A stretch of DNA of 64,000 nt from Escherichia coli. GTDB lineage: Bacteria > Pseudomonadota > Gammaproteobacteria > Enterobacterales > Enterobacteriaceae. The DNA lies in the NCBI RefSeq assembly GCF_013315695.1, contig NZ_CP054353.1. The stretch is one strand, 5' to 3'. Of the stretch, positions 16,032-23,019 are shown in pieces (within the stretch, counting starts at the first letter, position 1; each line of letters begins with the position of its first letter). The notes below the pieces were generated by a model. It worked only from the letters and a program-made list of their open reading frames with translations, did not search any database and was not told the DNA's origin. The translations under genes were made by a program, and so were the position numbers.

Positions 16032-16153
16032 TACTTCTCCGGTTAGTAAGAAATCACGGGAGCCATGCTACCACTGTGATTTTAACCGCTTACTGACATG
16101 GCTCACGATGTTGCGCATTGCTTCTGGCGTGGCAAACAAGGCGCTGATGTTTC

Positions 16154-16966
16154 TTATCCTTCTCGTGCAAATTGTGCCGCCTCAGCAATCAGTTGCGCAT
16201 CAGGCCGTACGCCGGTATACATTGCGAACTGCTCGACGGCCTGTAAAGCAATCACCTCCGCACCGCTAATCGTCTGCTTATCAAGCCGTTGCGCCAGGCG
16301 AATGAGCGGCGTTTCCGGCGGCAAGGCCACGACATCAAAAACGACGCTTGCCGTTGAGACCATCGCTTCGCTGAAGGCCAGCTCATGGCTCTCTTTACCG
16401 CCGCTCATGCCAACGGGCGTCACGTTGACCAGAATGTCGCAGGCGATGCCTTCCGGCTGCGGTTGCCACTGAAACCCATACTGCTTCGCCAGCGCCGGGC
16501 CGCTCTCGCGGTTGCGGGCGGCAATGATAACATCCGTAAACCCCGCGTCGCGAAAGGCGGCAATCACCGCTTTGCCCATGCCGCCACTGCCGCGAATCAT
16601 CACTCGCGTGGTGGTATTGAGCTGGTGGTGGGTAATCAGGCTTTTCACCGCGATATAGTCGGTGTTAAACCCGGTCAGCCTGCCGTCGTCATTCACGATG
16701 GTATTCACGGAATCAATGACCTTCGCCGACGGATCGATCGCGTCGAGAAAAGGCATGCAGCTTTCTTTAAACGGCATCGACACAGCGCAACCGCGAATAC
16801 CCAACGCGCGAACCCCTTTCACCGCCGCTGCAATATCCTGGGTGGTGAACGCTTTATAGATGAAATTCAGCCCCAGCTTTTCATAAAGATAATTGTGAAA
16901 ACGCGTGCCGAAGTTACCGGGGCGGCCGGCCAGCGACATGCAGAGTTGAGTATCGCGATTAATCAT
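16154..16966 (-). CDS. shikimate/quinate 5-dehydrogenase (AroE/YdiB)-family protein, last gene of sor operon
   Basis: ORF with SDH-family motifs (SMPFK, NTD, Rossmann GSGGMGKA); start placed at MINRDTQ (ATG 16964-16966) overlapping sorE stop. Confidence 0.75.
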   Translation of the reverse strand: MINRDTQLCMSLAGRPGNFGTRFHNYLYEKLGLNFIYKAFTTQDIAAAVKGVRALGIRGCAVSMPFKESCMPFLDAIDPSAKVIDSVNTIVNDDGRLTGFNTDYIAVKSLITHHQLNTTTRVMIRGSGGMGKAVIAAFRDAGFTDVIIAARNRESGPALAKQYGFQWQPQPEGIACDILVNVTPVGMSGGKESHELAFSEAMVSTASVVFDVVALPPETPLIRLAQRLDKQTISGAEVIALQAVEQFAMYTGVRPDAQLIAEAAQFAREG

Positions 16967-18188
16967 GGGAAATCGCCTCTGCATGGGCGAGCAGGTACTG
17001 CTCCGCCTCGCCAGACCAGACTCCCTGATGACGCGCCAGAATCGCCGCCAGTTCTTCATCCTGAATCTGCGTGAGTGATGTCAGCGGCAGATATTTCCCG
17101 GTATACACCAGTTTTTTCCCGCCGCCGACGGCAGGCAATTCAAGCGTGGTTTCGCCCGCGGCATTCAGCCCAAGAATATGTGTTACCACTTTTGCGGCCT
17201 GCACTTTTTTCTCTTCAATCAATTTGACCGCTGCGCGCATGTCGTCGGTATTGCCGCCTGACGTGCCTACGTAGTGGGTAAATGCATAATGCACATCGTA
17301 GAAATTAATTGGCGCGCTGAAGTGCTTATCCTGCGGTCCGGCGAAGAAATTCAGGCAACCATCTGTCGCCAGCAAGGAAGAGGCGAGAGTCACCAGTCCT
17401 TCATTAGGCACAAAGACGAAAATATCATCGAAGCCGTGACCGCCACTCAGCGCCATTAACGTATCAAATGCTGCATCGGTGGCATTGAGATAATGAATCA
17501 GTGTTTGCGGTTCTGATGGATAGTGCTTGCGCGCATAACTCAATTTGTCGTTGTCGGTATCGGTAATGACGAGCAGCGAAGGGTTAACGGGTCCATGTAG
17601 CGCATAATCAATCGCCAACAGTCCCATTGGTCCGGTGCCGCCGAGGATCAGCGTGCGCCCTTGCGGGCGAATCCCCATCGTGTGGTTATAACTACCTTCC
17701 TGAAGATGATAGTTGGCGTTGAACGCGCCAATCACGCAGGAAAGCGGTTCAACCAGCGAGCCTTCAAAATAGGTTTCGCCGTCGTATGCCAGCAGGCAAT
17801 CTTGTTCCATGACCTCGTTGGGAATAACCACATGCGTCGCTTCGCCGCCTACCCACGGGAAGGAGTAGCCGGGGCAGTCCGGGCGGTCGGGGAGTTGCAG
17901 GTTGGCCTGAATCACATAACGCTGACCCGGCTGGAATTTGTGCTGCCACTTTTTACCCACGGCCAGAATATCGCCGCAAAATTCGTGGCCGATGATGATG
18001 GGATTGGTCGCCACATCGTCGGGTACTTTTTTATGGTTTTCCCCCAGATTGGCCTCTTTCCAGGAAGAGAGGCACAGGCTGTCAGTGACCACCGTCGCGA
18101 GGATTTCATCCTCCTGCATTTCAGGAAGGTCAAAGGTTTCCAGACGCAGGTCACGTTTGCCATAAAGACGCAGAGCTGTTGTTTTCAT
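16959..18188 (-). CDS. sorE: L-sorbose-1-phosphate reductase (Zn-dependent MDR family)
   Basis: 409-aa product from MKTTALRLYGK; position and length fit SorE of sorCDFBAME. Confidence 0.85.
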   Translation of the reverse strand: MKTTALRLYGKRDLRLETFDLPEMQEDEILATVVTDSLCLSSWKEANLGENHKKVPDDVATNPIIIGHEFCGDILAVGKKWQHKFQPGQRYVIQANLQLPDRPDCPGYSFPWVGGEATHVVIPNEVMEQDCLLAYDGETYFEGSLVEPLSCVIGAFNANYHLQEGSYNHTMGIRPQGRTLILGGTGPMGLLAIDYALHGPVNPSLLVITDTDNDKLSYARKHYPSEPQTLIHYLNATDAAFDTLMALSGGHGFDDIFVFVPNEGLVTLASSLLATDGCLNFFAGPQDKHFSAPINFYDVHYAFTHYVGTSGGNTDDMRAAVKLIEEKKVQAAKVVTHILGLNAAGETTLELPAVGGGKKLVYTGKYLPLTSLTQIQDEELAAILARHQGVWSGEAEQYLLAHAEAISHD

Positions 18189-18239
18189 AAACCACCTCAT
18201 GTTGAGCGATGACCCCGGCAGTCGTGCCGGGGCGAAGAA

Positions 18240-20848: not shown

Positions 20849-21655
20849 TTAGCCGCGCGTTTTGCCGCCCGCAATGTTAGTGGTTACTCCGGTGATATAG
20901 CTGGCGCGTTCAGACAGCAGATAACAAACAAAATCAGCCACTTCTGCTAATCTTCCGGCGCGCCCAATAGGAATGGCGTTTTTGGTATAGCCTTCACGCA
21001 GCTGCTCGACGGTGATATTGCGCGTCCACGCCAGCGCTTCTTCATATTCCGGCGTGCGCAGTCCTGTTTTTTCCAGAATCCCCGGCGCGATACCGACCAC
21101 ACGGATACCGTGCTTACCCAGTTCTTTCGACCAGGAGCGAGTGAAGCTATTGAGCGCAGCTTTAGTGGCGGCGTAGCAGCTCTGGCCTTCTGAGCCTTCC
21201 AGCCCACTTTCTGAGGAAACATTCACAATCACGCCATCGTGTTGTTTGACCATCTGTCGCGCCACCGCCTGCGACATCAGAAAAACGCCTTTCTGGTTGA
21301 TATTGACCATTTTTTCGAATGCAGCTTCGTTGAGTTCATACTGCCCGGCAGGCGCTTTCTCATCGACCAGCAGACGCGGGAAATTGACCCCGGCGTTATT
21401 GACCAGACCGTCGATGCGACCAAAACGCTGGATAATTTCTGCTACCGTATGATTTACCTCTTTGGCGCTGGAAATATCGGTCGGCCAAAACTGATAGCCT
21501 TTATGACCTTCATATTGTCCATCGCCACCGTGAATATCGACCATCTGTACATTCGCGCCTTGTGCTAATAATTCATCCACAATCGCCAGACCAATGCCGG
21601 ATGCGCCACCGGTGACAATAATGATTTTATCCTGCAAATTTAACCACGTTTGCAT
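20849..21655 (-). CDS. sorD: sorbitol-6-phosphate 2-dehydrogenase (SDR family)
   Basis: 268-aa ORF with TGGASGIG Rossmann motif and YxxxK. Confidence 0.85.
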   Translation of the reverse strand: MQTWLNLQDKIIIVTGGASGIGLAIVDELLAQGANVQMVDIHGGDGQYEGHKGYQFWPTDISSAKEVNHTVAEIIQRFGRIDGLVNNAGVNFPRLLVDEKAPAGQYELNEAAFEKMVNINQKGVFLMSQAVARQMVKQHDGVIVNVSSESGLEGSEGQSCYAATKAALNSFTRSWSKELGKHGIRVVGIAPGILEKTGLRTPEYEEALAWTRNITVEQLREGYTKNAIPIGRAGRLAEVADFVCYLLSERASYITGVTTNIAGGKTRG

Positions 21656-21724
21656 AACAGACTCCTGATTTTAGATAATAGGGACCCGCCGTAATTTTTA
21701 TTACGGTAAACATCGGGAAGATTT

Positions 21725-22672
21725 TTATTTCAGTAATAGTTCAGCTGTGCTGCTATTCGTTACCAGACAATTAATATATTTTCCACGCAGTGCACCAACA
21801 ATTCCGCTGTATTTTTCTTCACTCATGGCAATGCCAATGGAATATCGTGCCTGCTTTAATTTATTCATTTCGATAGAGAGTGTTTTTTCGCTCATATTCG
21901 TTTCAACCATTGCGCCGTGAATATCAAAAAAGCGCGAGCAAATATCGCCAGCAACCTGGCGGGCATTCAGGTCGTCACTCTCTTCACCACCATAAAACGC
22001 ATGCCAGTTAGCGCCGTCGCGAATGGCCGGTGAGCCAATTCCCACCAGGGCGACATCCAGATTATCCCAGTAGGCAGAGATGGTTTTAAAGTGCTGAGAC
22101 TGCATGATCCCATTACGAATTAATGGGTTATCCAGCAGAGCCGGAAAATCCGCGAGATGCGATTCCCCTTTCAACTTCGCTGCCGCGCTGTAGGTTAATG
22201 TGTTTACATGATAGCGGCTTTCGAGTTTACCGGACGGTCCGCCAATAATTGGTACGCAGATTAACTGCCGCGATTGCCCCGCCTGCGGCAAGTTTTCAAC
22301 CAGTGCGCTCACCGCGCGGCCCCAGGAAAAACCAACAATATCGCCAGGTTCCAGCAAGCGATCCAGCAGTTGCGCGCCGTGTAACCCCATCATCGCCAGT
22401 TGAGTCTCTTCATCCTCATCATTTCCCGACACCACCACAACGTCTTTCAGGCCAAACTTTTGCTTCAGTTGCTGCTCCAGCCAGAGATTTTCGTTGTAGT
22501 CATAGTTGATGGCGATGGTGACAATTCCCTGATCGCGGCCTCGTTTAAGCAAGCGGCTGATGGTGGTGCGGTAAATACCCAGTTCGCGCGCGATTTGCGC
22601 CTGCGTCATATCCTGTTCGTAATAGAGTTGGGCAATCTTCACAATCAAACGGATATCGTCACTGTTTTCCAT
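21725..22672 (-). CDS. sorC: SorC-family transcriptional regulator of sorbose operon
   Basis: ORF; start at MENSDDIRLIV (315 aa), HTH then sugar-binding domain. Confidence 0.85.
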   Translation of the reverse strand: MENSDDIRLIVKIAQLYYEQDMTQAQIARELGIYRTTISRLLKRGRDQGIVTIAINYDYNENLWLEQQLKQKFGLKDVVVVSGNDEDEETQLAMMGLHGAQLLDRLLEPGDIVGFSWGRAVSALVENLPQAGQSRQLICVPIIGGPSGKLESRYHVNTLTYSAAAKLKGESHLADFPALLDNPLIRNGIMQSQHFKTISAYWDNLDVALVGIGSPAIRDGANWHAFYGGEESDDLNARQVAGDICSRFFDIHGAMVETNMSEKTLSIEMNKLKQARYSIGIAMSEEKYSGIVGALRGKYINCLVTNSSTAELLLK

Positions 22673-23019
22673 TGCCGCCTCCTGGTTCTGCACATTTGTG
22701 CAAATACGCTTTCTCACCGCTTGATCTGATATAACCCCATCATGATGGCCTTTCAAAGCGATTTTTCACTCTTTGCATGGGGGGAAATAGCGCTTTCTCT
22801 TGCACATTTGTTTCTCTGCGTAGTAGTCATCAGCACAGGTGTGCAGCGATTCGTAATATGTTGATTATCCTTATTTTGCCAGGCAAATTTGCATCGTACT
22901 TCCGGAGACACTTTTGTGATAAAAGGCGTGGCAGATCACATTTAATTTCGACGTTGCCGCATAACCCTGTTTTTCCCCGCTAAGAGGTACGGTATATTCC
23001 GCGTTTTACAGGAGAATTT
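22673..23019. promoter_or_regulatory. divergent sorC / rluF promoter region
   Basis: Intergenic region between divergently oriented starts; no sites mapped. Confidence 0.4.

Follow-up and report, generated by a model that had tools for sequence, protein, structure and literature searches.

Two questions are posed by the interval between pepE and rluF in Escherichia coli contig NZ_CP054353.1 (RefSeq assembly GCF_013315695.1), which we examined within a stretch of 64,000 nucleotides, here called the window: (i) what the genes that occupy this interval encode; and (ii) whether they were inserted at a site that had been empty, as it is in K-12, or were already present in an ancestor and have been lost from K-12. 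Our answer, to which we give a probability of about 0.9, is that the region is a full eight-gene L-sorbose operon (sorCDFBAME-sdhL), ancestral at the site between rluF and pepE-yjbB, which most sor-positive E. coli carry with sdhL deleted and which K-12-like strains have lost as a whole.

An earlier reading of the letters alone (the original prediction) had seen in the interval a seven-gene island for L-sorbose utilisation. It called the operon known, and so it is, having been experimentally characterised in Klebsiella and E. coli; the sorCDFBAME operon of Klebsiella pneumoniae is reportedly the subject of work by Wehmeier and Lengeler in 1994. What is added here is a new reading of sdhL and of how the locus came about.

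Gene content of the interval

The interval holds eight co-oriented genes on the minus strand, detected as open reading frames (ORFs) and present as the same eight in the RefSeq annotation (Table 1). The RefSeq record of an E. coli blood isolate has a 100%-identical stretch annotated with the same eight genes, sorE included. The original prediction had named seven, sorCDFBAME, in that order on the minus strand, and this much is borne out by ORFs, RefSeq and family models; its product lengths are right for six of the seven, SorD having 268 amino acids (aa) rather than 267. The gene that it missed is sdhL, so that 16032-16958 was left unexplained. The junctions are overlapping or closely spaced, as had been said: sorF and sorB overlap by 1 nt, the gaps between sorD and sorF and between sorA and sorM are 9 nt and 10 nt, and the other gaps are 51-69 nt.

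Families were assigned with curated NCBIfam cut-offs for SorD, for the four enzyme II (EII) subunits IIA-IID of the phosphotransferase system (PTS) and for the eighth gene, and with Pfam for SorC and SorE. SorD scores 501 bits against NF004817, 'sorbitol-6-phosphate dehydrogenase subunit' (cut-off 304). SorC combines a Pfam Sugar-bind domain (270 bits) with an N-terminal helix-turn-helix, and its orthologues at the equivalent position in other genera are 83-99% identical in amino acid sequence. SorE contains the Pfam domains ADH_N and ADH_zinc_N; its homologues in Citrobacter, Klebsiella and Enterobacter, which share 85-91% identity with it, bear the name L-sorbose 1-phosphate reductase. The cluster thus has the makings of a sor-type locus: a SorC-type first gene, four separate EII subunits, SorE together with SorD, and the order C-D-F-B-A-M-E.

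The NCBIfam models for IIA-IID are family-level (mannose/fructose/sorbose) and alone give no sugar specificity, so that one might suppose, as the original prediction did when it considered how it could be wrong, that the PTS and dehydrogenases form some other mannose-family system. We regard this as scarcely credible. Orthologous alleles have been shown to confer growth on, and to respond to, L-sorbose; the gene order and lengths fit the Klebsiella-type locus; and a SorE-type reductase and a sorbitol-6-phosphate dehydrogenase are both in the cluster. A fragment of CFT073 carrying c4981-c4987 gave DH5alpha the ability to grow on L-sorbose (PMC2831201), and the published primers for that clone map to window positions 16929 and 23018, which makes 16929-23018 the equivalent segment. 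Strains of sequence types (STs) 648 and 131 grow on L-sorbose and induce the operon, and deletion of sorE in ST131 abolishes sorbose use (PMC12817954). E. coli counterparts of the cluster are thus on record from CFT073, enteroaggregative E. coli 042 (PMC2808357) and ST131/ST648. The Sor proteins of the window are 93-99% identical to those of the O157-type allele, as they are to other E. coli alleles, and 74-96% identical to the Klebsiella and Raoultella orthologues. The K. pneumoniae sorCDFBAME genes (Sprenger & Lengeler 1984) are the same seven, in the same order and with the same pathway, and likewise lie beside rluF. Judged by homology and by published experiments, the region therefore comprises the L-sorbose genes sorCDFBAME rather than another mannose-family PTS.

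For the orthologous operons of Klebsiella and E. coli, the route from uptake to glycolysis has been established, and it would be expected to hold for the window allele. SorF, SorB, SorA and SorM (EIIA, EIIB, EIIC and EIID) would import L-sorbose as L-sorbose-1-phosphate, which SorE would reduce to D-glucitol-6-phosphate; SorD would oxidise the latter to D-fructose-6-phosphate, which would then enter glycolysis. SorC would act as a repressor when L-sorbose is absent and as an activator when it is present, and a promoter under SorC control, located between sorC and rluF, would drive transcription on the minus strand.

The eighth cistron

The product of sdhL matches NCBIfam NF009202, 'shikimate 5-dehydrogenase', over its full length with 467.5 bits (cut-off 306). 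It also aligns at full length with Haemophilus influenzae HI0607 (PDB 1NPY; E = 2e-112), and is ~66% identical in amino acid sequence to Pasteurellaceae orthologues over the full length (tblastn, MAFFT). The ATG of sdhL is inside sorE, so that the first 8 nt of sdhL are also the last 8 nt of sorE, stop codon included (CATGATTAA), and this 8-nt overlap is kept in 29/29 loci where sdhL follows sorE, as well as in Klebsiella and Enterobacter loci. Through the overlap, sdhL would be translationally coupled to sorE.

When SdhL was aligned with AroE and YdiB of E. coli MG1655, its active site was found to keep the catalytic Lys67/Asp103 dyad, along with Asn88 and Gln242. In AroE, Ser14 and Ser16 bind the shikimate carboxylate; the HSKSP motif to which they belong (NPIAHSKSP) is replaced in SdhL by the two-residue-shorter GRP--GNFG, and the tyrosine-containing 'YDMFY' stretch of AroE reads 'FDVVA'. 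Because the Lys/Asp dyad is kept and HSKSP is lost, SdhL has the appearance of an active NADP(H)-type oxidoreductase whose substrate pocket is altered. In the SdhL/HI0607 class (PDB 1NPY) as a whole, the dyad is likewise present and the SxS motif missing. The report on HI0607 is said to agree with such a pocket: Singh et al. reportedly found in 2005 that the enzyme oxidises shikimate slowly in an NADP-dependent reaction and that quinate activity is absent. Since its crystal structure of 2005 (Singh et al., J Biol Chem 280:17101, as listed in PMC3608921), SdhL has been an orphan class of shikimate-dehydrogenase-like enzyme.

Expression data for an ST648 strain place sdhL among the sor genes in its response to L-sorbose: its RNA rises by a log2 fold change (log2FC) of 6.01 (~64-fold) and its protein by a log2FC of 6.77, with sorA RNA at a log2FC of 5.67 and the other sor genes level with sdhL (PMC12817954 supplement). 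The same study places sdhL 'immediately upstream' of the operon and regards it as an ST-specific insertion (PMC12817954). The sequence, contrary to that description, puts sdhL downstream, as the terminal cistron.

Published sor operons list seven genes, in contrast with the window and its intact eighth cistron. As the eighth gene occurs in a K. variicola/pneumoniae-complex genome, the figure of seven probably goes back to the end of the fragment that was first sequenced. sdhL is dispensable for the core pathway, and seven genes suffice for growth on sorbose.

A shared deletion in sdhL in most sor-positive E. coli

Alleles were counted in 5426 complete E. coli genomes. The sor cluster is carried by 2865 of them and absent from 47%, and is thus accessory within the species, as the original prediction held. 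The central 701 bp of sdhL (16208-16908) is present in 176 genomes, and a query spanning the sdhL-deletion junction of O157 matches full-length in 2689; since 176 and 2689 add up to 2865, all sor-positive genomes are accounted for. O157 still has the two ends of sdhL, ~54 bp (3′) and ~58 bp (5′), one on each side of the junction. Most E. coli, CFT073-type and O157 included, thus have only a remnant of ~110 bp, which the annotation pipeline PGAP leaves unannotated, whereas the window has sdhL intact. Because both ends of sdhL flank one identical junction, the seven-gene operon of most E. coli derives from the eight-gene form by a deletion that they share and that occurred once. Microhomology at the deletion amounts to at most 2-4 nt (GCCG/CG), and the O157 junction has 2 extra bases compared with a clean join, so that no deletion mechanism can be named.

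The identical junction also bears on the view, taken in PMC12817954, that sdhL is an ST648-specific insertion beside a seven-gene operon and a member of the shikimate pathway. Among the sequence types tested there, the intact eight-gene state was found in ST648 only, one of six studied (PMC12817954). The PGAP name 'shikimate 5-dehydrogenase' points the same way. So does the slow oxidation of shikimate that is reported for the HI0607 orthologue. An insertion in ST648 is nevertheless hard to square with an ~700-bp deletion whose two sides hold the ends of sdhL in 2689 other E. coli genomes, or with the presence of sdhL after sorE, again overlapping it by 8 nt, in Citrobacter, Klebsiella, Raoultella, Enterobacter and other Escherichia species. 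As for the shikimate pathway, SdhL has no counterpart of the carboxylate-binding Ser14/Ser16 motif of AroE, and E. coli already holds aroE and ydiB. We judge this view to be very improbable.

Two further differences between the window and O157 may be mentioned. The sdhL-deleted allele of E. coli O157:H7 (Z1813) has, between pepE and the sdhL remnant, a 163-bp insert (L002:1831-1993) with palindromic units resembling repetitive extragenic palindromes and bacterial interspersed mosaic elements (REP/BIME), GCCTGATGCGCTACGCTTACCAGGCCTAC ... GTAGGCCGAATAAGGC...CGCATCCGGCA; the window is without this insert. Between window and O157, sorM and sorF are 84% and 88% identical at third codon positions, and the neighbouring sor genes and the flanks 91-98%; this divergence, in line with the several sorF clusters that have been reported (PMC12817954), hints at mosaic recombination inside the operon.

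Insertion or loss

Whether the cluster entered E. coli by insertion was approached through its distribution in other species, in a survey with one genome per species that found sdhL relatives in 80 loci. In 29/80, sdhL is directly behind sorE and the whole of sorCDFBAME-sdhL lies between rluF and pepE/yjbB; these belong to Pseudocitrobacter, E. albertii, E. whittamii, cryptic Escherichia, eight Citrobacter species, the Klebsiella oxytoca group, Raoultella, Enterobacter and a Serratia-labelled genome. The K. variicola/pneumoniae-complex genome and Enterobacter hormaechei have the same eight-gene arrangement. At least seven genera thus have the cluster at the rluF/pepE-yjbB site. Its silent divergence is like that of its neighbours: at third codon positions, the window and E. 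whittamii are 78-85% identical in sor and 76-83% identical in yjbB, pepE, rluF and yjbD, and in comparison with E. albertii the values for sor and flanks overlap. Against Citrobacter and Klebsiella, sor and flanks are both saturated near 50-60%.

The original prediction also stated that K-12 has no genes between pepE and rluF, which is correct (the intergenic region is 211 bp), and proposed an alignment to that region by which the junctions and any direct repeats could be found. The match of K-12 to the window runs up to 16127 and resumes at 22985, with 80 K-12-only bp in between, which sets the junctions at 16128 and 22984. Between these two borders there is no shared k-mer of at least 7 nt, in direct or inverted orientation, and the repeats within a single border are short and of the size expected by chance. 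No tRNA genes or Rfam families were found in or around the region, nor are there mobility genes (integrase, transposase) at the borders among the ORFs or in the annotation. The GC content of the region is 51.8%, and that of the whole window 51.5%.

That a seven-gene sor island was horizontally inserted into a K-12-like backbone, originally empty at this site, is in our view unlikely. Such an event could account for the absence of the cluster from K-12 and from nearly half of the complete genomes; it could draw on the apparent ability of sor to cross genus boundaries (see below for Pseudocitrobacter), and on the 80 bp at the empty K-12 site, which have no clear counterpart in the sor allele. 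It is opposed by the occupation of the same site in at least seven genera, by silent-site divergence equal to that of the flanks within Escherichia, by borders without repeats, tRNA, integrase or transposase, by normal GC, and by the count of eight genes, not seven. It is opposed also by the phylogroup frequencies, the cluster being present in >86% of every phylogroup except the derived A (9.6%) and B1 (12.1%) (PMC12817954). The genomic islands of E. coli that are associated with tRNA genes and integrases show a presence/absence polymorphism of the same kind; the sor locus differs from them in being without integrase, tRNA, repeats or GC deviation, and in being syntenic across genera. The usual marks of a genomic island, namely mobility features at the borders, atypical GC and absence from the same site in relatives, were thus not found.

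Because of the shared site in many genera, the flank-like silent divergence, the plain borders, the normal GC and the phylogroup frequencies, the K-12 state is better read as loss. In the history that we favour, an ancestor of Escherichia and beyond, within the Escherichia-Citrobacter-Klebsiella part of the family, would have had the eight-gene cluster; one shared deletion of ~700 bp would then have removed sdhL from most sor-positive E. coli; and the whole cluster would have been lost in K-12-like strains (phylogroups A and B1).

Several observations weigh against an ancestral eight-gene operon with subsequent losses. Intact sdhL is nearly monomorphic in E. coli, 175/176 copies being at least 99% identical, which may reflect either retention of sdhL in one lineage or its re-import into that lineage. 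In Pseudocitrobacter (L004, L005, L048), third-codon identity to the window is 64-80% for sor and 53-64% for the flanks (53-61% for yjbB and pepE); as sor is closer than its flanks, the cluster can move between genera by recombination, and the pattern suggests a replacement of the cluster between genera at the shared site. Of the 80 K-12-specific bp, which have no match inside the sor cluster, the rluF-proximal ~20 bp match Kluyvera, Citrobacter and Klebsiella weakly, and the end-points of a deletion in K-12 are accordingly tentative. Finally, we infer the co-transcription of sdhL with sor from the gene overlap and the co-induction. A sorbose-related role for SdhL is in addition weakened by its dispensability, by its retention without the sor structural genes in Kluyvera and Pluralibacter, by its absence from the sor clusters of Yersinia and E. 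fergusonii, and by its place after cysE in Pasteurellaceae.

K-12 shares just 35 bp upstream of rluF with the sor allele, so that rluF must use different upstream sequence in the sor and the empty state. In a K-12 derivative, 56 bp (L003:1888-1943) match Kluyvera (L028/L032) at 87.5%. The 21 bp upstream of the shared 35-bp stretch match Kluyvera rather than the E. coli allele with sor, so that the E. coli alleles differ in the sequence next to rluF.

Reduced forms of the locus exist in other taxa. In six species of Kluyvera (L018-L020, L028, L030, L032, ~9057-10810), only a sorC-like gene (70-73% amino acid identity) and, 23 bp behind it, sdhL lie between rluF and pepE. Pluralibacter has sdhL alone at the site. 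E. fergusonii (L090, L091) has the seven sor genes without sdhL and without pepE, with a DUF2058 gene before yjbB. The Yersinia cluster (L092) is sorC-FBAM-E, without sorD or sdhL, at an unrelated site beside genes for a four-carbon acid sugar kinase and an aldolase.

The sorC-rluF control region

Two palindromes and a half-site lie in the divergent region between sorC and rluF, and are plausible SorC operators; proteins of the SorC family occupy paired half-operators as tetramers (PMC11229326). Neither the promoter-proximal palindrome nor the TTATAT block varies among 11 sequences from Escherichia, Pseudocitrobacter, Citrobacter, Klebsiella, Raoultella and Kluyvera. At up to 2 mismatches, the palindrome TGCACANNTGTGCA shows no enrichment across the window (3 found, 3.97 expected), so that its only support is where it lies and its constancy from genus to genus. 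In Kluyvera the promoter-proximal palindrome is still present before the sorC-like gene, which supports the derivation of this two-gene unit from the full operon. In a consensus scan, the counts of intrinsic terminators and sigma-70 promoters were not above those in shuffled sequences, and no convincing terminator or promoter was seen between sdhL and pepE or upstream of sorC.

Table 1. Positions in the window of the sor genes, their flanks and the sequence features discussed in the text.
Feature	Position	Strand	Basis and remarks
pepE	15342-16031	-	left flank
sdhL-pepE spacer	16032-16153		122 bp; pepE co-oriented downstream; pepE-proximal 96 bp common to K-12
Segment absent from K-12	16128-22984		6857 bp; blastn of K-12-derivative locus L003 against the window
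sdhL, eighth and last cistron, SdhL-class shikimate-dehydrogenase-like NADP(H) oxidoreductase	16154-16966	-	270 aa; RefSeq 'shikimate 5-dehydrogenase'
sdhL segment deleted in 2689/2865 sor-positive genomes	16208-16908		O157-window alignment; junction query
Overlap of sdhL start and sorE stop, 8 nt, ATGATTAA	16959-16966	-	read from sequence; translational-coupling geometry
sorE, L-sorbose-1-phosphate reductase, zinc-ADH/MDR family	16959-18188	-	409 aa; named sorE by RefSeq
sorM, PTS EIID	18240-19064	-	274 aa; TIGR00828, 473 bits (cut-off 293)
sorA, PTS EIIC	19075-19872	-	265 aa; TIGR00822 'EII-Sor', 422 bits (cut-off 340)
sorB, PTS EIIB	19938-20432	-	164 aa; TIGR00854 'pts-sorbose', 223 bits (cut-off 164)
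sorF, PTS EIIA, mannose/fructose/sorbose family	20432-20839	-	135 aa; TIGR00824, 143.8 bits (cut-off 98)
sorD, D-glucitol(sorbitol)-6-phosphate dehydrogenase, SDR family	20849-21655	-	268 aa
sorC, SorC-family regulator, first gene of operon	21725-22672	-	315 aa ORF; RefSeq 'sugar-binding transcriptional regulator'
sorC-rluF divergent control region, putative SorC operators and sor promoter	22673-23019		repeats, cross-genus alignment
Promoter-proximal palindrome, TGCACATTTGTGCA / TTGCACAAATGTGCA	22688/22689-22702		between GGGGTTATATCAGATC block and sorC ribosome-binding site
Conserved block, GGGGTTATATCAGATC	~22722-22737		cross-genus alignment
Half-site	22800-22811		repeat search
Second palindrome, AGCACAGGTGTGCA	22832-22845		repeat search
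rluF	23020-23892	+	right flank

What SdhL may do

Our best guess would be that SdhL has an auxiliary part, as a reductase or dehydrogenase of some polyol or ketose that carries no carboxylate. How closely such an activity would be tied to sorbose depends on the relation of the gene to the operon, and there are two scenarios to consider.

The first is that SdhL is a passenger. Its gene would have been at the rluF-pepE site from an earlier time and have come to be joined to the tail of the sor transcript, and the true substrate of the enzyme would have nothing to do with sorbose; we put the chances of this at about even. Growth on sorbose needs just the seven genes, and ST131, which is without sdhL, still grows on sorbose (PMC12817954). 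The gene has been lost from 94% of sor-positive E. coli. Kluyvera and Pluralibacter hold sdhL at the site without sorDFBAME, and the sor clusters of Yersinia and E. fergusonii have no sdhL. In 23/43 loci outside Enterobacteriaceae (Pasteurellaceae), sdhL follows cysE by ~13 bp. In Pasteurellaceae the HI0607-class gene thus comes after gpsA-cysE, whereas in the window sdhL is last in an L-sorbose-inducible sugar operon. The neighbours outside Enterobacteriaceae are housekeeping genes only (yibN-secB-gpsA-cysE upstream, udp downstream) and give no hint of function. A mere passenger would not readily explain why the 8-nt overlap is strictly conserved across genera, or why L-sorbose induces sdhL strongly in both RNA and protein. 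In Kluyvera, moreover, sdhL lies directly behind the sorC-like gene with its sor operator palindrome, which suggests that SorC-type control itself has been maintained.

The second scenario, which we advance tentatively and consider rather doubtful, is that SdhL is an integral and ancestral last cistron of sor, with a sorbose-related ketose or polyol as its substrate (5-keto-D-fructose, L-sorbose or their phosphates) and not shikimate. It is encouraged by the conserved overlap, by the strong induction and by the existence of 5-ketofructose (5-KF) reductases (KFRs) in the shikimate dehydrogenase (SDH) family. The KFRs of Gluconobacter (PDB 7COK) and Tatumella (PMC7954740) belong to the same superfamily as SdhL; their substrate is a ketohexose chemically one step from L-sorbose and D-fructose, so that enzymes with the SDH fold can be sugar reductases. 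The similarity of SdhL to the Gluconobacter enzyme (PDB 7COK) is distant (E = 2e-16) and weaker than that to true AroE enzymes, and a Clostridium SDH homologue of KFR is inactive on 5-KF (PMC7954740). If SdhL were integral to sor, the 'canonical' seven-gene operon of E. coli would be a decayed derivative.

Other features of the window

Outside the sor region, yjbD and lysC, which are adjacent in K-12 and O157, are split in the window by a decayed insert (24694-28868). It contains a slipin-family pseudogene interrupted by a stop codon (24694-25821), a nucleotidyltransferase gene that an IS4 element divides in two (transposase 25959-27305) and a copy of IS1A (28171-28868); lysC follows at 28922-30271. 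In the strain whose sequence is identical to the window, a gene for a SopA-family protein is annotated between malM and ubiC, at what corresponds to window positions 45346-46926 (NZ_OZ547117.1 3920192-3921772; offset 3874453).

Implications for the sor locus in E. coli

The sor operon has been discussed as a fitness or virulence marker of high-risk E. coli lineages, and the same studies left open how E. coli 'acquired' it and treated sdhL as an ST648-specific insertion (PMC12817954, PMC13410766). The known biochemistry of sorbose use is unchanged by our analysis. The comparison suggests a simpler history, in which an eight-gene locus was received from the ancestor of Escherichia, a shared deletion removed sdhL, and the cluster was lost in phylogroups A and B1. 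For the orphan SdhL class, the locus provides a concrete context, that of co-expression with L-sorbose catabolism.

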